Source: an uncultured bacterium
GTDB taxonomy: Bacteria; Margulisbacteria; WOR-1; CAVSGV01
Direction: 5' to 3'
DNA: 32,000 nucleotides
Assembly: GCA_963699255.1 (NCBI GenBank)
Contig: OY969425.1
Span: forward strand, 300,001 to 332,000
The notes below the pieces were generated by a model. That model saw nothing but the letters and a program-made list of their open reading frames with translations. It was not told where the DNA came from and did not search any database. Positions 6,157 to 14,142 of the stretch are shown piece after piece (within the stretch, counting starts at the first letter, position 1; each line of letters begins with the position of its first letter). The translations under genes were made by a program, and so were the position numbers.

Positions 6157-7724
6157 ATGACCCGGAAGCCTTTATCTCCGGACCCGAATTATAAATGGAG
6201 CGTCCTGATCATAGTCATGATCGGCATGGTAATGGCGATGCTTGATTCAAGCATCGTGAACGTTTCGATCCCGAAGATAATGGCTGATTTCGGTTCCAGC
6301 GTCGCGGACATCGAATGGGTCGTTACCGCGTACATGCTCGGGTTCGCCGTCCTCATGCCTCTTACCGCCTGGTTCAGGGACAGGGTAGGGCACAAACTCC
6401 TTTACTCGATGAGCCTTATCGTATTCACCGTGGGATCCCTTTTGTGCGGGCTTGCATGGAACCTTCCCTCGCTTATCGCGGCAAGGGTCATACAATCGTT
6501 CGGCGGAGGAGCCATGAATCCCACGGGCATGGCCATGATCGCCGAAGCGTTCGATGCAAGGGAGCGGGGAAAGGCCATGGGATATTTCGGGGTGGCGATA
6601 GTTCTCGGACCCGCGCTCGGACCCACACTGGGAGGATTCCTTACCGAGGTGTTCGGCTGGAGGTCCGTTTTTCTGGTGAATCTCCCCATAGGGATCATCA
6701 ACATGATTATGGCAATGGAAATGCTGGTCCCGGACAGGCCCGGGCCCGAATCGCATAAGCCTTTTGACATGTGGGGTTTTGTTTTTCTTACCATCTTCCT
6801 TATCTCTTTTCTTCTCGGGATGTCCAGGGGAGAGACGGAAGGCTGGACTTCTAGATATATAATGATCTGCGCGGCGCTTGCGGCGATCAGTTTTTCAAGT
6901 TTTATCATCACGGAAACTCTTGTCCGCGACAGGATAATGGACCTTGGTCTGTTCAGGCATCCTGTATTCAGCGTTGCCATGCTTATTTCCGCCATCAGGA
7001 GTGTCGCACTTTTTGGAGGAGTATTCCTTTTACCTTTATTTCTTCAACAGTTAAAAGGTCTGTCCGCGGTCCAGAGCGGCCTCATCCTTATGCCGGGCAC
7101 GCTGGTGATGGCGCTGGTAATGCCTGTTGTTGGATTTATTACCGGCAAGGTAAGTCCTCGTTTTTTGGCAATGGTTGGACTAACTATACTTGCTTACTCA
7201 ATGTTCATGTACAAGGATATCAGTATTTATATGAGCAACTGGGATATTGTTTTTCCAACGATGGTAAGGGGTGTGGGTATGTGCCTTCTTATGGCGCCGA
7301 TAATGACGCTGGCACTGAATTCGATCCCGCGTCATAAGGCGGGGATGGCTTCATCCATGATGAGCATCATCCAGCAGGTCGGGGGCGCGATCGGGATAGC
7401 GCTGCTGTCCACCGTCCTTGATAACAGGACCAAATTCCACACGAACAATATGGGGCCGATGATACAGTCCGGCACCCGAAATTCATCGAGACGATAAATG
7501 CGATAGCTTCCCGGGCCCATGTTATCGGCATGACGAATTTAAATTCGGTCCTGGCCGCGAAAACAGCCGTGATGAAATATTTTTATATGGCGATGATGGG
7601 ATATGGATTCCAGGATGCTTTTGTTTTCGCTACCGGGCTCATAGTTCTGTCGCTGATCCCAACACTGCTTCTTCCTAACAAGAACGTGATACATCACTCG
7701 CAGGATAGCGTCATAATGGAGTAA
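6157..7724 (+). pseudogene. DHA2 (EmrB/QacA-type) MFS efflux permease with a broken reading frame (parts 6157-7497 and 7425-7724)
   Basis: The N-terminal 446 aa carry the EmrB-like LDSSIVNVSIPKI motif and about 13 TM helices, then end in ...MIQSGTRNSSRR*. Frame 3 is open from 7425 and reads ...HPKFIETINAIASRAHVIGMTNLNSVLAAKTAVMKYFYMAMMGYGFQDAFVFATGLIVLSLIPTLLL. That is the expected periplasmic loop plus the last TM helix of a 14-TM DHA2 pump. One missing base near 7468-7476 would restore a single ORF. Confidence 0.8.
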
Positions 7725-7751
7725 GCTGGTTTTGGATTATTTACGCTTCTT

Positions 7752-8330
7752 TTACAAGTTTTCCGCCAGTACTTCGTAATAAGCCTGAGGGTGTTTACAG
7801 GCAGGGCATTGTTTGGGCGCTTCTTCTCCTTCATATATATAGCCGCAGTTGATGCAGTGCCATTTTACAGTTTTCTTTTTCTTGAAAACTTCGCCGTTCG
7901 CGATATTGCTGATAAGTTTCCTGTATCTTGACTCGTGGAATTTCTCGACCTTGGCGACCTGGTCGAAAGTGTTCGCGATGTCTGAAAAGCCTTCATCACG
8001 GGCGATCCTGCTGAAATCCGAATAAAGGGTCGTCCATTCCAGGTTTTCTCCGGCAGCCGCTTCTTCCAGATTGGACTTTGTGTCTTTGATCATTCCCGCG
8101 GGATAACTGGCTGTGATCTCTAAGTCCCCTCCCTCCAGGGCTTTAAAGAATAGCTTGGCATGTTCCTTTTCGTTCTCGGCCGTCTCGGTAAAGATATTGG
8201 CGATCTGCTCAAAACCTTCTTTCCTTGCCGCGCTCGCGAAATAGGTGTAACGGTTGCGCGCCTGCGATTCCCCCGCGAACGCCTTTAAAAGATTCTGCTC
8301 TGTCTTGGTTCCTTTCAGTGATTTTCCCAT
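7752..8330 (-). CDS. rbr: rubrerythrin
   Basis: Ferritin-like diiron domain (EQNLLKAFAGESQARNRY, ENEKEHAKLF, ...EKFHESRYRKL) plus a C-terminal rubredoxin-type CINCGY...CPACKHP. Strong RBS AAGGAGGG. Confidence 0.95.
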   Translation of the reverse strand: MGKSLKGTKTEQNLLKAFAGESQARNRYTYFASAARKEGFEQIANIFTETAENEKEHAKLFFKALEGGDLEITASYPAGMIKDTKSNLEEAAAGENLEWTTLYSDFSRIARDEGFSDIANTFDQVAKVEKFHESRYRKLISNIANGEVFKKKKTVKWHCINCGYIYEGEEAPKQCPACKHPQAYYEVLAENL

Positions 8331-8778: not shown

Positions 8779-9036
8779 GTGAAAAAGAGTTTTACAGCAT
8801 TATTCATGTTGCTATTGGTCCTAGGCTGTTTCTCGGCAAATGTCGTTTTTGCAGATCAGGTAGCGGTGAGTCAGGAAGCTCAAAAGGTAAAACAGGACAG
8901 AAAGCAGTTAAAACAGGATAAGAAAGCCCTCAAAGCAGCCAAAAAGGCGGCCAGAAAGGCAAAACGTGCGGCAAGGAAGCAGCAAAAGCAGGGAACAAGC
9001 GAGGCCACACCGGCTCCGGTCCAAACAAATCAGTGA
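8779..9036 (+). CDS. small exported (possibly lipo-) protein with a lysine/arginine-rich helical tail
   Basis: GTG 8779 sits 8 nt after GAGGAGG (8764-8770). Signal peptide KKSFTALFMLLLVLGCFSANVVFA contains a VLGC lipobox-like site. The mature part is K/R/Q/A-rich (KQLKQDKKALKAAKKAARKAKRAARKQQKQ). A terminator follows. Confidence 0.6.
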   Translation: MKKSFTALFMLLLVLGCFSANVVFADQVAVSQEAQKVKQDRKQLKQDKKALKAAKKAARKAKRAARKQQKQGTSEATPAPVQTNQ

Positions 9037-9055
9037 TCACTGAAACATAAATATA

Positions 9056-9090
9056 AAGCCGAGGGGACTTAAACCCTTCGGCTTTTGTTT
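9056..9090 (+). terminator. rho-independent terminator
   Basis: AAGCCGAGGGG-ACTTAAA-CCCTTCGGCTT stem-loop with one bulged T, followed by TTTGTTT. It lies directly after the stop at 9036. Confidence 0.6.
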
Positions 9091-9127
9091 GTAAAACCCC
9101 AATAGGAACGGATGGTGGGTTAGTCTG

Positions 9128-9137
9128 CGTATCAAGG
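9128..9137. repeat. left copy of the 10-bp direct repeat CGTATCAAGG
   Basis: Read directly from the sequence. Identical to 14545-14554. The flanking bases differ on both sides. Confidence 0.6.
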
Positions 9138-9151
9138 ATCCGAAATAATTT

Positions 9152-9197
9152 AATTTCCAATTCACAATTTACAATTTGACATTTATTATTGGAAATT
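9152..9197. repeat. 10-bp perfect inverted repeat enclosing three tandem heptamers (candidate origin or recombination site)
   Basis: AATTTCCAAT (9152-9161) and ATTGGAAATT (9188-9197) are exact reverse complements. The 26-bp spacer contains ACAATTT (9164-9170), ACAATTT (9171-9177) and GACATTT (9178-9184). Confidence 0.6.
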
Positions 9198-9326
9198 GGT
9201 CATTACCCGAAGGGTTGGCTCCCCCTAGTAGACATGTTCAGGAACCGACTTATTAAGGTTGAGCTTAGCCTTCAATACATTAAATCTATTTATTCTTGTC
9301 TTAGAATTGAACCCGTAATTGTTTAA

Positions 9327-9659
9327 CTAATGTGGTTTTGGCGAACTGAGAAAATCAAACAGAAATTTAAGAGCAACTCCAAGAACTACAAGAAAAATGG
9401 CCCAAAGAGCATCCCCCCATTGTTTGAGTCTAGAAAAGACCGCATTTCTATCAACTTCTTGGATTAGTTTTTTTATTTCATTTTTTATATTTTCATCCTT
9501 TTTTACCATAGAACAAAAGAGATCGCAAAATAATTTATCTAGTTTTTTTGAATCCTTTGACGCTTCTTCCAATGCAAGAGCAATTTGTTCTGGTTTTAAT
9601 CTATTTTCAAGTACCGTTACGCGGTCTTTTATGCTTGGTTTATCAACATTACCTGCCAT
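9327..9659 (-). CDS. hypothetical 110-aa protein: charged helical N-terminal part plus a single C-terminal TM helix
   Basis: The ORF starts 1 nt after the stop of the upstream 160-aa ORF. Its C-terminal segment WGDALWAIFLVVLGVALKFLFDFL is hydrophobic and the rest is K/E-rich. No family recognised. Confidence 0.6.
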   Translation of the reverse strand: MAGNVDKPSIKDRVTVLENRLKPEQIALALEEASKDSKKLDKLFCDLFCSMVKKDENIKNEIKKLIQEVDRNAVFSRLKQWGDALWAIFLVVLGVALKFLFDFLSSPKPH

Positions 9660-9660
9660 A

Positions 9661-10143
9661 TTATTGTCCTTTTAATTTACCTATCGCATTGTCGACTGCT
9701 AGAAAAAAATCATCAATCTTCTTATTTCCCGCACTATATCCTAAACTAAATTCGTCTTCAGGAAATTCAATTGATATTTCGGCTCTTTTTTCTCCGTTTT
9801 CCACATTAAGAGATCTTTTAACGCCCCCAATTATATCTCTTAAATAAGTGGAATCAGATTTAATGTCTTGACCAGTATCAGCAATGGTAACTTTAATCAA
9901 TTTTGCCTTTGTTAGGATATACACAAGAATTCCTTCTGCCCCTTGCGATAAGGTAGCGGGAATAACAAGACATTCTGTCACAGTATCCCCATTAACTATC
10001 TTTGTAATAAATTCAGGGAAGGTGGTTTTATCAAGCCGACTAAGTAGGGTGTCATCATCATAACTATATACTTTATCCAATATGATTTGAATTTTATCTG
10101 CGCCTTCGGCTAATGGTTGAACTTTGCTTACATTGTCGTCCAT
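9661..10143 (-). CDS. hypothetical 160-aa soluble protein (beta-rich core plus C-terminal helix, possibly PH-like)
   Basis: Clean ORF and first gene of a two-gene minus-strand operon. It has alternating beta-like segments (TECLVIPATL, GILVYILTKAKLIKVTIA, RAEISIEFPEDEFSLGY) and a terminal helix KKIDDFFLAVDNAIGKLK. The fold assignment is only an inference. Confidence 0.6.
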   Translation of the reverse strand: MDDNVSKVQPLAEGADKIQIILDKVYSYDDDTLLSRLDKTTFPEFITKIVNGDTVTECLVIPATLSQGAEGILVYILTKAKLIKVTIADTGQDIKSDSTYLRDIIGGVKRSLNVENGEKRAEISIEFPEDEFSLGYSAGNKKIDDFFLAVDNAIGKLKGQ

Positions 10144-10152
10144 ATATGTTTT

Positions 10153-10182
10153 ATATTACCTTTTTATAATATTGATGTCAAT
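10153..10182 (-). promoter_or_regulatory. candidate promoter with overlapping palindrome for the 10143-9327 operon
   Basis: On the minus strand: TTGACA (10181-10176), a 17-nt spacer, then TAATAT (10158-10153). The ATG at 10143 lies only 9 nt downstream of the -10. The palindrome ATTGA-TG-TCAAT (10171-10182) overlaps the -35. Confidence 0.45.
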
Positions 10183-10369
10183 ACTGCCTAGCCCTCATTT
10201 GTTGTGCCACTTAGACTTATTCTGTCCCTAATATACCTAAAATTATGTAGATCAGCGTTACCGCAATGGATAGCTCCATTTATACTCATTATAATGAATC
10301 GGACTAAACGGTATTTCAAGAATGCTTTGATCAATGATATAATAATAATTGATTTGAAGAAGTAATGAT

Positions 10370-11230
10370 ATGACAACACAAAAAAACCAGCAGTTGCGCG
10401 ATAAACTCGACAGCGTTGACAGCAGGGCAAACCAACCACGGCCAACTCAAGGACAAGCTAAGATGCTTCGCTATATAGAAGACCTTATCCGAAATAAACA
10501 ATTTAAGCGACTGATTAAAAGGTTAAGAAACCTGAGCAAACTTCGCACTATGCCTAAAGGTAACTATTATGACTGGACTCTTGAAGAACAAAAAAAACAT
10601 GATGGGATAAACAATGAGCTTCATTCAATCGCTCAAGGATATGAGGCTTTGCGTAAAAGATGCAAAAAGGTCTTGAGGAAAAAAGATTCTGTTGTGAGAG
10701 AAAAAATTGCGTCTGATTACGGGTTAGATAATGATTTAATAAACCACGCCTTGGCCTTACTTGGAAAGAATGAGGAAACCATAAAATGGTCAAAAAAGGA
10801 AATTGATCCTGATATGTGCAAATTGATTGATTTGTATGAAGAAGAAATGAGCCCTCTCAATAAAGGGGAAGAGATTATATATCTAAACCTTGTCCGACAG
10901 CTCCTAATTACAGCATATCCCGTTGCTATCGCCATTCACCCAAGAGCCTCAAAAAGAGATGTTTTAGATTATATTGAGAAGCGATGGAAATGGATTGACG
11001 CAAAACAATGGATGTTTAACCAAAAAGGTGCACTTAAAATCAAGAAAAGAAAGCATAGCCAAGAAATGATCGATTTTATATGGGCAAATCGTTCTTTGCC
11101 AGCAAAGCAAATTGAGAAAAAGCTCAATAAAAAGTTTCCAAATAATGAGCTTGTCTACTACGAAATAAGCAAGATAATCCAAATTGAAAAGCAAAGACGC
11201 TTCAAAGACTTAACTGCTACCGAAAAATAA
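10370..11230 (+). CDS. hypothetical 286-aa protein (basic, possible C-terminal helix-turn-helix)
   Basis: Long uninterrupted ORF in an AT-rich region where random ORFs are short. The C-terminal segment SQEMIDFIWANRSLPAKQIEKKLNKKFPNNELVYYEISKII looks HTH-like. No family recognised. Confidence 0.65.
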   Translation: MTTQKNQQLRDKLDSVDSRANQPRPTQGQAKMLRYIEDLIRNKQFKRLIKRLRNLSKLRTMPKGNYYDWTLEEQKKHDGINNELHSIAQGYEALRKRCKKVLRKKDSVVREKIASDYGLDNDLINHALALLGKNEETIKWSKKEIDPDMCKLIDLYEEEMSPLNKGEEIIYLNLVRQLLITAYPVAIAIHPRASKRDVLDYIEKRWKWIDAKQWMFNQKGALKIKKRKHSQEMIDFIWANRSLPAKQIEKKLNKKFPNNELVYYEISKIIQIEKQRRFKDLTATEK

Positions 11231-11306
11231 CGTGGGTCGGTAACTTCTTATCTAATTATTCTGCAAGCAGGTAACCTTATGGCATAACCATTAAAGGTTG
11301 CTTGTT

Positions 11307-11576
11307 ATGCAAGACACAAATAAAGATCAACAAAACAAGAATCTTCAAATAAAGGATTGCTCCTCCGAAGCCCGACGGAATCTTGTCGGCTTCTTTGGGT
11401 TGCCTATTACAGACGATAAACAAACGACACATGACATGGACATCAGTAATTTATCTTTTAGTGATGAAGAGATTAAAAGGATTGCTGATGTCCTCGCTAT
11501 TTTAATTAAAGTCGACCAAAGAATAAAGGGAACAAAAAGGGAGGTGAACATAAATGAAGGAAATATTAAAGCTTGA
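11307..11576 (+). CDS. hypothetical 89-aa protein
   Basis: ATG 11307 lies about 10 nt after AAAGG. The ORF track begins at TTG 11298. Same strand and tightly packed with downstream genes. No motif recognised. Confidence 0.4.
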   Translation: MQDTNKDQQNKNLQIKDCSSEARRNLVGFFGLPITDDKQTTHDMDISNLSFSDEEIKRIADVLAILIKVDQRIKGTKREVNINEGNIKA

Positions 11577-11688
11577 AAAAGCATTGCGTGAAATTTTTGC
11601 AAAGAATTATAAAGAAGAGTTATCTAGACGGGTTAAGAAAGGACTTGAAGAAGCAAAAAAGCGAAAAAATGAAACCAATAATAAGTGA
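11554..11688 (+). CDS. 44-aa basic helical ORF (below the ORF-track cutoff)
   Basis: ATG 11554 is preceded by a strong RBS GGGAGGTG (11539-11546, 7-nt spacing). Translation by hand: MKEILKLEKALREIFAKNYKEELSRRVKKGLEEAKKRKNETNNK, stop TGA 11686-11688. It overlaps both neighbours. Residues IFAKNYKEELSRRVKKGLEEAKKRK resemble the alpha-E helix of serine recombinases (FAEFERELISERTKAGLAAAKARGK pattern). Confidence 0.4.
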   Translation: MKEILKLEKALREIFAKNYKEELSRRVKKGLEEAKKRKNETNNK

Positions 11689-11965
11689 GATACAAATAAC
11701 GCCGATCAAGGCAAAAGACGGGCTGATTGCTATTGCCAGCTTTGTCTATAACGAGGATTTTTATATGGGGTCAATCGGGATATACACAAGGCCGCAGGCC
11801 GGATACCGATTGACCTACCCCACCCGTAAGACCGCTAACGGTAGTTTCAATCTTTTCCATCCGATTAACAAAACCATTGCGGATGAAATTGAGAAAGCAG
11901 TAATCAGCAAATTTGAAGAGGTAATGAATCTGTATGATAGACACAATAGTATTAACACTGAGTAA
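11669..11965 (+). CDS. SpoVG-fold nucleic-acid-binding protein homologue
   Basis: MKPIISEIQITPIKAKDGLIAIASFVYNEDFYMGSIGIYTRPQAGYRLTYPTRKTANGSFNLFHPINKTIADEIEKAVISKF aligns by eye with B. subtilis SpoVG ([34 protein letters not shown]...[34 protein letters not shown]). ATG 11669 fits the family N-terminus. The track ORF starts earlier at TTG 11573. Confidence 0.75.
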   Translation: MKPIISEIQITPIKAKDGLIAIASFVYNEDFYMGSIGIYTRPQAGYRLTYPTRKTANGSFNLFHPINKTIADEIEKAVISKFEEVMNLYDRHNSINTE

Positions 11966-13103
11966 AGATATGTTTTATATAACCGAACCGGATAAATTTA
12001 CGCCATCGGCTCGCTGGCTTGATGCTAACACAAGCCTATCGGGAAGCCGTGCCTATATCACTTCCAAGCAAAACCCGATAAAAACCGAATTGCTTGACGG
12101 CCTTTATAAGCCCCGCCTTACTTTAACCAACCGTTTTAACCATACTGGAAGCTTTGAAGCTTCATTAAAAATCGAGCTATCCTTACCCAAACTTCTATAT
12201 GGAAATAACTTTGATGAATTGAAAGATTCCGATTTTGAATCGGTCTCAAACAAATTACAGGAACGGCTACAAGAAATGGGCGTTCATGTTTTTAAGCATT
12301 TACTTATCAAAGCCCTTGTTTCAGCGGTGCATTATTCAAAAAACATACCGCTTACCGACGGGACAACACCTTATCACTTCATAAAGAAAATTCGAGAAGC
12401 CAATATCACTCAAGCCCTCGATGCTAACCAAACCGATTTCCGCAATGATGGCCATAGTTTTAAGTGGCATTGCAATTCTTATGAAGTCGCATTTTATGAC
12501 AAGATCAAAGACCTTGAATTTTCAAAGAAAAGCACAAAACGGGCAATAGAAAAAGATAATATTATGCAACTGGGGCTTTTTGATGCTTTGCAAAAAAGAA
12601 AACCCTTTGAGGTCTTGAGGATGGAAGTAAGGCTAAATAAACGGCAAAAAATAAGCCAGGTTTTCAAAAGGCTTGGGATTGACAGCGAGGTAACCTTTCA
12701 AAGTGTTTTTGATTCCAAAAAATCTCAATTAGTCTTATCGTATTATCTTGTCGAAGTCGAGAAGCAAAGGTCAGCCCTATTGGATCGGACATATAACGAT
12801 CCCCAAACATTATTAGCTGATATTGTCATAAGCAATCCAAAACTGAAAGCAAGACAGGCATTACAGGTGTTTGGATTAAAGCAGGCGTTTGATAAAATCG
12901 GGATGCGGGAGCTAAGGAAGATACTTAACAGATTAAGCGATCGATCTTGGTATCGTTTAGTTAATACTATCAAGCAAGTGAAGCTTGCGAAAAAGAATGA
13001 CACTTTCGGGGTTATCCGCAAACATCTATTATCTTTTGAACCCCTAAAGTTAGCTAATTTTCAAAATGCCATCGAAGATAGAAAGGGCTTGAACAGCGTA
13101 TGA
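11934..13103 (+). CDS. rolling-circle replication initiator-like protein (Rep_trans / phage gene II-CRI superfamily)
   Basis: 389 aa. The N-terminus MIDTIVLTLSKDMF resembles f1 gpII MIDMLVLRLPF. The central pair of motifs SYEVAFYDKIKDLE ... FEVLRMEVRLNKRQKI matches the pT181 RepC pattern RIYNKKQE ... WRVEIELKR and the gpII pattern LVRFEARIKTRYLK. RBS GAGGT lies 9 nt upstream. The gene overlaps the SpoVG-like gene by 32 nt. Confidence 0.6.
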   Translation: MIDTIVLTLSKDMFYITEPDKFTPSARWLDANTSLSGSRAYITSKQNPIKTELLDGLYKPRLTLTNRFNHTGSFEASLKIELSLPKLLYGNNFDELKDSDFESVSNKLQERLQEMGVHVFKHLLIKALVSAVHYSKNIPLTDGTTPYHFIKKIREANITQALDANQTDFRNDGHSFKWHCNSYEVAFYDKIKDLEFSKKSTKRAIEKDNIMQLGLFDALQKRKPFEVLRMEVRLNKRQKISQVFKRLGIDSEVTFQSVFDSKKSQLVLSYYLVEVEKQRSALLDRTYNDPQTLLADIVISNPKLKARQALQVFGLKQAFDKIGMRELRKILNRLSDRSWYRLVNTIKQVKLAKKNDTFGVIRKHLLSFEPLKLANFQNAIEDRKGLNSV

Positions 13104-13510
13104 ACAGCGAGAAAAGGCATAATGCCACAGACACAGGGCAAACGAGGCTCACAGGGGCTATTATCACGCATTATAGGCCCTTATGGCGGATTACTGATGA
13201 TGCCTATGACAGGTATTATCAATCCTTCAGGGATAAGATAGCCGAAATTGATGCGAGGTTAGCACTACTTCAAGATGCCGAAGATAATTACTATATCACT
13301 GTAAAATACTTGCTAGATGTGGCTAAACGGGCAAACGATCTATTTGTCCGTTCGGAAGTTGAGGAAAAACGACAGATCATCAAGCTTATACTTCCGAACC
13401 TTAGGATGGATGGCAATACTTTGCGATATGAAGCACAAAAACCGTTTGATTTTCTACTCGCTTATGCGGATAGTAAAGGAAAGCTCCCCCGAGAGGACTC
13501 GAACCTCTAA
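13100..13510 (+). pseudogene. large serine recombinase, C-terminal fragment only (coiled-coil / C-terminal region); no catalytic domain
   Basis: ITDDAYDRYYQSFRDKIAEIDARLALLQDAEDNYYITVKYLLDVAKRANDLFVRSEVEEKRQIIKLILPNLRMDGNTLRYEAQKPFDFLL matches the recalled C-terminal consensus of large serine recombinases (..AN..Y...G..LLELA..A..LF......EKRRLLNFVLSN......L....R.PFDLL). The ATG overlaps the Rep stop (ATGA at 13100). The last 27 nt run into the tRNA 3' end. Confidence 0.55.
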
Positions 13511-13793
13511 CCAATCGGTTACAAGAACCTCAAAATTACTTTTGAGCTTGGACTATCTCATCACCCTTATTAACGGTCTAAAGGGGTCGGGCGCTGATGA
13601 GGTTTATTGGTTGGGATCCTCACCCTCTAGTCTCTGCACGTTACCGCCTACTTTAAACCCTTCGGCGATCTTCGCTCAGGATTATCCTTAGACAACCTAA
13701 GGACTTCCCTGAATTCACCCGATTTTTCAACCCCGGTTACCCGGGGAAGCTGCCACTTGACAGCCGATTGCTCTACCATTGAGCTACAGGGGA
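13484..13793 (-). tRNA. tRNA-Asn (anticodon GUU) interrupted by a 238-nt group I intron; exons 13793-13760 and 13521-13484
   Basis: The spliced sequence is UCCCCUG UA GCUC AAUGGUA GAGC A AUCGG CUGU|UAA CCGAU UGGUU AGAGG UUCGAGU CCUCU CGGGGGA G (72 nt). It forms a full cloverleaf with a 7-bp acceptor stem (one G.U), U1-A72, discriminator G73 and anticodon loop CUGUUAA, as in E. coli tRNA-Asn. CCA is not encoded. Confidence 0.85.
13522..13759 (-). ncRNA. group I (self-splicing type) intron in the tRNA anticodon loop
   Basis: - P1: the 5' exon ends in U, and exon GCUGU pairs with intron GCAGC (13753-13749), giving a U.G pair at the splice site.
- P2: CCCCGG-GUAA-CCGGGG (13746-13731).
- P-like element GAAUUCAGGGAAG and Q-like element AAUCCUGAGC, forming P4 CAGGG/UCCUG.
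- P5: UCCUUAG-GUUGU-CUAAGGA.
- R-like element GUGCAGAGACUAGA (13639-13626) and S-like element GAGAUAGUCC (13559-13550), forming P7 GACUA/UAGUC.
- P9: CUCAAAA-GUAA-UUUUGAG (13546-13529).
- The last intron nucleotide is G (13522). Confidence 0.85.
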
Positions 13794-13839: not shown

Positions 13840-14142
13840 CTTTGAGATAAAGCCCGCATGTAATTCACGGTGACAGTTTGCGCACAACAATTTACACTTA
13901 TTAAGTTCATTTTTTACTTTTTCCTAACTACGAGTGTAACCTTTTGCTGATATCCCGAAATCCTTCTTCGTGTCATCAAGATGATGGAATTCCAATGCAT
14001 CAGGGCATTTAGAATATCCGCAGTTCTCGCAAAAGCCACCTTTTAACTCAATTGCTTTTACCCGCAAATTCCTTCTTTTCTTTTTGACCGCTTCTATCAG
14101 ATACTTGCGTCTGTCCTTATATGTTCTTGTATCTTTATTCAT
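13837..14142 (-). pseudogene. small HNH endonuclease with an in-frame TAG (13924-13926) at a conserved Trp position
   Basis: The track ORF ends ...FGISAKGYTRS*. Reading through the TAG in the same frame gives EKVKNELNKCKLLCANCHRELHAGFISK*. This restores the CxxC ... HH ... CxxCH architecture of about-100-aa HNH proteins, whose consensus as I recall it has RSWE at this point. TGG to TAG is a single transition. Confidence 0.8.

Follow-up and report, generated by a model that had tools for sequence, protein, structure and literature searches.

A SpoVG-like gene overlaps a gene for a filamentous-phage gpII-like initiator in what is most likely a stranded relic of a tRNA-targeting integrative element

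The locus analyzed here lies in a 32,000-nucleotide (nt) stretch of the genome of an uncultured bacterium (Margulisbacteria; WOR-1; CAVSGV01; contig OY969425.1, positions 300,001 to 332,000), which is termed the window and whose coordinates are used throughout. Four plus-strand open reading frames (ORFs) between positions 11298 and 13103 were confirmed within an island of low guanine-plus-cytosine (GC) content. They encode two small proteins, a SpoVG-like protein and a protein of 389 amino acids (aa), termed Rep, that resembles the replication initiator gpII of filamentous phages (Table 1). Successive ORFs overlap by 23, 20 and 32 nt, and the ATG of the ORF behind Rep overlaps the Rep stop codon by 4 nt. 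An earlier note on this DNA had reported four overlapping ORFs at these positions, and comparison with related loci verified that this tight packing is conserved and not a product of chance, as the lengths of the overlaps recur in relatives. Of the 44 SpoVG-Rep pairs found, 43 share 32 or 29 nt and the remaining one shares 38 nt. Further upstream, 30 of 32 related loci have a micro-ORF that reaches into or adjoins the start of the SpoVG-like gene, with an overlap of 20 nt in 14 of them and of 4 nt in eight. The two small ORFs had been considered orphans, but each falls into a recurrent micro-ORF family and they are therefore not orphans. Family A is defined by the motif L-I-x-[IV]-D-[QRK]-[RK] in 20 loci; the 92-aa ORF of the window matches a 50-aa ORF (E 2.8e-13) that precedes the SpoVG-like gene in the most closely related element, L002, whose Rep is 85% identical and whose length is approximately 10.8 kb. 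Family B (Y-K..L-S..[IV]-K.G-[ILF]) has 11 members including the window ORF, so that the window carries one member of each family.

The upstream neighbor of Rep had been taken for a SpoVG homolog, which was verified by a match to PF04026 above the cut-off (35.2 versus 29.6 bits, E 1.4e-8, profile positions 3-82 of 82) and by an end-to-end alignment of residues 5-90 with the solved SpoVG structures 2i9z, 2i9x and 2ia9. As the score for the NCBIfam equivalog model PRK13259 was far below its cut-off (37.1 versus 108 bits), the protein is a member of the family and not an ortholog of the chromosomal septation regulator. A profile search of the host genome identified the island copy as its sole SpoVG gene. 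Similarity to the solved structures of the SpoVG family, which is known from B. subtilis, S. aureus, Borrelia burgdorferi and Listeria, extends over the full length and includes the conserved H-P-I-N motif and a basic doublet, Arg53-Lys54, which aligns via the P-S-K-R sequence of 2i9z with Lys50-Arg51 of S. aureus. Mutagenesis revealed that this doublet in S. aureus and Arg53-Arg54 in Borrelia are essential for DNA binding (PMC3688583), and double-stranded DNA, single-stranded DNA and RNA are all bound by SpoVG proteins (PMC3688583, PMC4959528, PMC11086051). Among the 37 element copies listed, the doublet is R-K or K-K in 34 and K-R in one. Unlike chromosomal SpoVG genes, the element copy is translationally nested with Rep, and the sequence of its last 10 codons is set by the N-terminal Rep codons that overlap them. 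An inverted repeat within the SpoVG-like gene is shared by the window and L002. In ten close relatives it keeps 9-12 of its 13 Watson-Crick pairs (12-13 if G-U pairs are counted), but it is not kept in the remaining relatives and clear compensatory changes are absent. The hairpin was therefore rejected as a family-wide cis-acting site, as it is conserved within one clade only.

The 389-aa protein belongs to a large family with 1,880 relatives in 90% clusters and 1,298 representatives at 50% identity; all named matches among its best 120 relatives are annotated as hypothetical. The sequence features that had been pointed out, a gpII-like MIDTIVLTL N-terminus and paired motifs, were recovered as M-I-D-T, F-Y-D-K (Tyr188) and R-M-E-V-R (Glu231), and the residues that are invariant in 51 relatives of 31-55% identity include Met1, Asp3, Thr4, Tyr188, Lys190 and Glu231. 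The Phage_CRI model PF05144 did not match the window protein at E<=1 and gave no match in five related genomes. It did match eight of the 51 divergent family members at E<=10 (best E 5.1e-7), and three of ten relatives that were inspected passed its gathering score over residues 60-239 (29.9, 25.9 and 24.3 bits versus 21.7). Of the Pfam assignments that had been anticipated, SpoVG thus holds, and neither Phage_CRI nor Rep_trans was found for the window protein itself. Single-sequence phmmer searches for the gpII link gave noise and M13 gpII alone reached only E 0.07 against the profile of the Rep family, so that a profile of seven inovirus gpII proteins from a phage collection was needed. Aligned by hhalign with the 51-member Rep profile, it yielded E 3.4e-5 and a probability of 72% over 258 columns. 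The alignment extends to the helical C-terminal region equivalent to gene X and places Tyr188 on Tyr-197 of M13 gpII, the tyrosine to which the nicked strand becomes covalently attached (PMC5405960). A lysine follows two residues further on, and approximately 43 residues downstream R-x-E-x-R is placed on R-F-E-A-R. Both proteins are similar in size (389 versus approximately 410 aa) and share an M-[IL]-D start, with M-I-D-T-I-V-L in the window protein, M-I-D-M-L-V-L in M13 and M-I-D-T-L-E-I in Dulem virus 63. An AlphaFold model of the window protein (predicted local distance difference test score 81, predicted template modeling score 0.83) was compared with viral models by Foldseek, which returned six matches at probability 1.0. 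These comprised an Inoviridae G2P protein (E 9e-5, template modeling scores 0.50/0.54) and five unnamed viral proteins down to E 1e-7. Taken together, the profiles and the predicted fold support, through transitive links, the homology of the 389-aa protein to gpII of filamentous phages and place a tyrosine at its catalytic position, even though the two share only approximately 14% identity.

Rep_trans proteins such as pT181 RepC and pC221 RepD contain a tyrosine motif of the Y-D-K type around residue 190 that is followed by R-x-E, as is the case in Rep. The assignment to a rolling-circle initiator lineage was upheld for its gpII part and found unsupported for its pT181 RepC/Rep_trans part, because a single relative matched PF02486 and remained below the threshold (E 0.026, 14.5 bits versus a cut-off of 29.6), the window protein did not match this model and Foldseek returned no solved structure.

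The island (9219-13490, approximately 4.3 kb) has a GC content of 36%, and the block from approximately 9000 to 13000 as a whole 36-39%, compared to approximately 50% in the flanks and 47.5% in the host genome, a single contig of 1.77 Mb. Rep is found in only two of 146 genomes of the host's own phylum, those of the window and of G087. The low GC content and the rarity of Rep mark the island as foreign to its host. The module had been placed on a mobile element, which is borne out by integrative-element junctions, a recombinase remnant and related elements. On the left, window positions 9219-9313 match L002 2053-2147 with 78% identity, and the sequence to the left of 9219 is host DNA that retains on its minus strand the apparent original 3' end of a tRNA-Asn gene with encoded CCA. 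The pattern GCTCCCCCNAG occurs at window positions 9218 and 13483 only, with 0.02 occurrences expected. Blastn alignments revealed that window 11664-13185 matches L002 5731-7252 (88%) and that the adjoining segment 13185-13505 matches L002 12567-12887 (92.5%). Because these two adjacent window blocks match separated L002 blocks, a deletion of 5.3 kb is placed at 13185. The ORF at 13100-13510 is accordingly chimeric and consists of 29 codons of former intergenic DNA fused to the last 109 recombinase codons. As these are all that is left of the recombinase domains, the gene is a remnant and not part of a working element. Scripted joining of position 13490 to 9226 continues the recombinase frame into the tail that was left at the other end of the island, and the counterpart of this tail is uninterrupted in the 531-aa recombinase of the related contig L061. 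These sequences indicate that the attachment site lies within the serine recombinase gene itself and that integration would exchange its last approximately 33 codons for codons read from the tRNA gene. Since the deletion took an excisionase-like gene and the catalytic part of the recombinase, the window copy has no means of its own to excise. Most likely it is a relic stranded in the chromosome, in which the genes for Rep and the SpoVG-like protein are still intact. The repeat at 9152-9197, which had been proposed as a Rep origin, falls outside the element, to the host side of 9219, and has no counterpart beside L002. A 14-nt direct repeat (9069 and 13653) was rejected as an attachment site, as one copy is located in a terminator hairpin and the other inside an intron. 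Local alignment of the left flank did not reveal a displaced tRNA fragment above random expectation; the junction was found by its homology to L002.

Table 1. Features of the island and of its target gene in the window
Feature	Position	Strand	Remark
Left junction, attL core CTCCCCC	9219-9225		homology with L002 begins exactly at 9219
Detached recombinase C-terminal tail, 33 codons after Leu-Pro	9219-9326	+	conserved at the protein level in the left end of L002
Two-gene cargo operon (110 aa + 160 aa)	9327-10143	-	ORF calls
286-aa protein	10370-11230	+	fills the slot of the conserved upstream protein of other elements
92-aa ORF	11298 (TTG) or 11307 (ATG)-11576	+	C-terminal half belongs to micro-ORF family A
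44-aa ORF	11554-11688	+	micro-ORF family B; stop overlaps SpoVG start by 20 nt
SpoVG-like protein, 98 aa (ATG form)	11669-11965	+	longest ORF opens at TTG 11573
13-bp inverted repeat, 21-nt loop, inside the SpoVG-like gene	11769-11815		weak cis-site candidate
389-aa gpII-like initiator (Rep), intact	11934-13103	+	candidate catalytic Tyr188
Deletion junction	13185-13186		lost relative to L002: approximately 5.3 kb with a helix-turn-helix (HTH) gene, a methyltransferase gene, a helicase-like gene and recombinase codons 1-390
Recombinase remnant, last 109 codons	13187-13510	+	94% identical to L002; tblastn matches only residues 391-499
Right junction, attR core CTCCCCC	13484-13490		inside the acceptor stem of tRNA-Asn
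tRNA-Asn(GUU), target gene	13483-13793	-	interrupted by a 238-nt group I intron (13522-13759) in its anticodon loop

To place the island in context, 80 genome loci and eight metagenome loci were compared. Intact relatives have a length of approximately 4.5-11 kb and form one tightly packed gene train that encodes a 237-524-aa protein, one or two micro-ORF products, the SpoVG-like protein, the gpII-like Rep, an excisionase-type HTH protein (HTH_17 or HTH_3), cargo that consists mostly of restriction-modification genes and a large serine recombinase of 480-530 aa with all three domains (catalytic, recombinase and zinc-ribbon). The recombinase gene was found downstream in 57 fetched loci, and in approximately 40 of these a convergent tRNA gene lies near its 3' end or is overlapped by it. 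The named hosts of the Rep family are Patescibacteria and Dependentiae. In one grade of the Rep tree, which includes the window and is mostly labelled Patescibacteria, a SpoVG-like gene is present for all 34 Rep genes with upstream sequence, and the target is usually tRNA-Asn(GUU); this gene overlaps the 3' end of the recombinase gene in 19 related loci. In the sister clade, mostly labelled Dependentiae, the target is a tRNA gene for Asp, Arg or Glu, and the overlapping slot is occupied by a member of an unrelated 27-member small-protein family, or no protein was detected there. These small proteins were tried as hidden SpoVG proteins and rejected, since only the tail of approximately 10 last residues that the overlap with Rep imposes could be aligned. 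As the tails of both partners are dictated by the out-of-frame Rep N-terminus, the overlap is of long standing, and at least one replacement of the partner has taken place. The sister-clade slot proteins have a length of 70-137 aa, no Pfam match and a similar overlap onto the Rep start (e.g. L037 7715-8053).

The second copy in the host's phylum, that of G087, is of full length (10.6 kb; G087:C6 ~35275-45844; L096 3275-13844), and its comparison with the window gives the same deletion pattern as that of L002. Its Rep frame has in-frame stop codons and is in five pieces, and ARAGORN detected no tRNA gene beside it. The contig L061 (9,230 nt) has a terminal overlap of 75 nt, contains no tRNA gene and encodes, in this order, a 353-aa protein, a micro-ORF product, SpoVG, Rep, an HTH_17 protein, a 1,065-aa restriction-modification enzyme of the Eco57I/MmeI type and the uninterrupted recombinase (6326-7921). 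Its sequence suggests that L061 represents the circular form of an element.

It is thought probable that the module constitutes the replication and control core of a small tRNA-targeting integrative element, in which a SpoVG-like protein is encoded beside a gpII-like Rep. From these sequences we infer a cycle in which the recombinase would excise the element as a circle and Rep would nick one strand at an origin, with Tyr188 forming the covalent link as Tyr-197 does in M13. Rolling-circle copying of the circle would then be followed by re-integration or loss. The SpoVG-like protein would be made from the same message just before Rep, whose start codon lies 32 nt inside the SpoVG-like gene, and may recognize the origin or attach to the displaced single strand, and perhaps also to the rep message.

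Such a role would be functionally comparable to that of the gene V protein of Ff phages, which binds both the displaced strand and the message of gene II. Because SpoVG proteins bind double-stranded DNA, single-stranded DNA and RNA, and because the inovirus neighbor of gene II encodes the gene V protein, it is tentatively proposed, at somewhat less than an even chance, that the SpoVG-like protein acts by analogy as a nucleic-acid-binding, gene V-like partner of Rep. A small gene follows gene II in every fetched inovirus locus; it is gene V in M13 and IKe, a helix-destabilizing protein gene in Dulem virus 52 and a small unnamed gene in three other loci. The similarity is limited to a small nucleic-acid-binding protein being encoded beside an initiator, as the folds are unrelated. 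The two positions, which the earlier note had likened to each other, also differ, with SpoVG located upstream of Rep and gene V downstream of gene II. A stronger version, in which SpoVG is a dedicated and obligatory co-factor of gpII-like initiators (through origin or strand binding and feedback on rep translation) and the elements form a major class of Patescibacteria replicons that crosses phyla, appears unlikely. If true, the obligatory co-factor would be the first defined DNA-replication role for the SpoVG fold.

Several results weigh against the proposed replication core. Taken alone, the 389-aa protein has no match in Pfam, NCBIfam, PHROGs or PDB sequences. Foldseek returned no solved structure at E<=0.001 and no replication initiator in the top 50, either with the full model or with the separately modeled N-terminal domain, although distant folds can be missed in this way. 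No relative was detected in phage, plasmid or IMG/VR collections by tblastn and pattern scans. There is thus no known free replicon or virus among the family members apart from the circular-looking L061, and the terminal overlap of L061 could instead stem from a collapsed tandem array. An origin or nick site was not identified among element repeats and shared k-mers; 13-mers shared across 39 elements were rejected as an origin signal, since they represent coding blocks only. Finally, the sister clade replaces SpoVG by another protein, and SpoVG is therefore not indispensable to this type of Rep.

The partner exchange also bears on what the SpoVG-like protein does, since an unrelated small protein in the same slot is easily pictured for a regulator. 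The SpoVG-like protein could mainly be a transcriptional or translational autorepressor that sets the dosage of Rep, much as CopG represses repB in pMV158-type plasmids, and the coupling would then merely tie the synthesis of Rep to that of SpoVG. With SpoVG proteins being site-specific DNA-binding regulators as well as RNA binders, and with the DNA-binding doublet conserved, this is a credible alternative, albeit one with the odds against it: one or two upstream micro-ORFs are already available as regulators, and the region upstream of the operon yielded no operator-like repeat. The chemistry common to rolling-circle initiators and relaxases raises the question of whether the gpII-like protein is instead a transfer nickase that cuts at an origin of transfer, with the element leaving the cell as single-stranded DNA. 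Relaxases of the Rep_trans-type MOB_T family act in the transfer of integrative elements of Firmicutes, and the spread of the elements over several phyla would fit transfer. Integrative mobilizable elements (IMEs) in which a serine recombinase is combined with a Rep-type relaxase are known (PMC5357655 and PMC5704250). A transfer function is nevertheless considered improbable, because none of the elements examined contains a coupling protein or conjugation gene and because Rep shows homology to a replication initiator from end to end, with the gene X part included, while its link to Rep_trans is weak.

The window copy itself allows for a further explanation, namely that, with the integrase gone, Rep and the sole SpoVG gene were retained by the host to serve a purpose of its own. 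Rep and SpoVG are indeed intact in an element that cannot excise, the ratio of nonsynonymous to synonymous substitution rates of Rep is 0.18 for the window versus L002 and the island carries the only SpoVG gene of the genome. However, this ratio mostly reflects the history before the deletion, and Rep is shattered in the one further copy that the phylum contains. The island is also still at its foreign GC content, and the pair is missing from most genomes of the phylum. Domestication therefore appears very improbable.

The replication core of an integrative element, as proposed here, differs from the gpII systems of filamentous phages in several respects. The gene for Rep lies on an integrative element that also encodes a serine recombinase and carries restriction-modification genes as cargo, while genes for coat or assembly proteins or for a gene V-like protein were not recognized on the elements. 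In addition, a SpoVG gene overlaps the Rep start, and the hosts are Patescibacteria, Dependentiae and, in the window, a third phylum. Streptococcal IMEs and the integrative and conjugative element (ICE) ICEBs1 are similar in their tRNA-targeted integration, their small size and their combination of a recombinase with a nicking initiator. In contrast to these, the initiator here is gpII-like, its partner is SpoVG and the recombinase gene spans its own attachment site. The hosts of the element family have no known conjugation machinery. An integrative element with a rolling-circle initiator is thus a known kind of system; what is new is the host range, together with a gpII-like initiator family outside the inoviruses and the SpoVG partner that is nested with it. 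Literature searches found no description of the element family, which is widespread among ultra-small bacteria and appears to be undescribed, and we know of few replicating mobile elements of Patescibacteria and Dependentiae that have been characterized. The family represents a compact and widespread candidate element with restriction-modification genes and a very divergent branch of gpII initiators outside filamentous phages. It also provides a system in which the still debated function of SpoVG could be tested at the biochemical level, and an intact relative could become a vector backbone for organisms without genetic tools. The window copy demonstrates that the element has reached a third phylum and illustrates a route of decay, a clean 5.3-kb deletion that spared the replication pair.

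The 110-aa and 160-aa cargo proteins have no significant library match and no relative in the 88 related loci. The 286-aa protein was tested as a member of the conserved upstream protein family and rejected, as no relationship was detectable; at this gene only the 5' region at 10333-10384 resembles L002 (82%). In most elements the gene train is headed by a member of a 39-member protein family (240-520 aa, e.g. L002 4056-5543) without a Pfam match. At the 3' end of Rep, a block encoding M-L-N-N-D-K-Y-N followed by the stop codon and the next ATG (the last approximately 30 nt, e.g. L004 ~7135-7165) is nucleotide-identical in 16-23 of 39 diverged elements and absent from the clade of the window; A+T-rich codon choice may explain this identity.

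The intron of the target tRNA gene matched the group I intron model RF00028 of Rfam with 84.7 bits, and ARAGORN called tRNA-Asn only once the intron was removed. No second tRNA-Asn gene was found in the 1.77-Mb host genome. The tRNA gene beside the L002 element has no intron. A 72-aa fragment of an HNH endonuclease (13924-14142, minus strand; PHROG HNH families, E to 4e-14) is encoded just past the intron-bearing tRNA gene. Elsewhere in the host genome, four full-length large serine recombinases with approximately 25% identity to this family are encoded near 887.5, 1095.3, 1106.3 and 1585.2 kb. These are unlikely to serve the window element; all four genes terminate close to the 3' end of a convergent tRNA gene (for Gln, Glu, Met and Glu, respectively). 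At four related loci (L008, L009, L062 and L076), two elements of the family are integrated in tandem at one tRNA gene, and the upstream recombinase gene reads into the left end of the next element.

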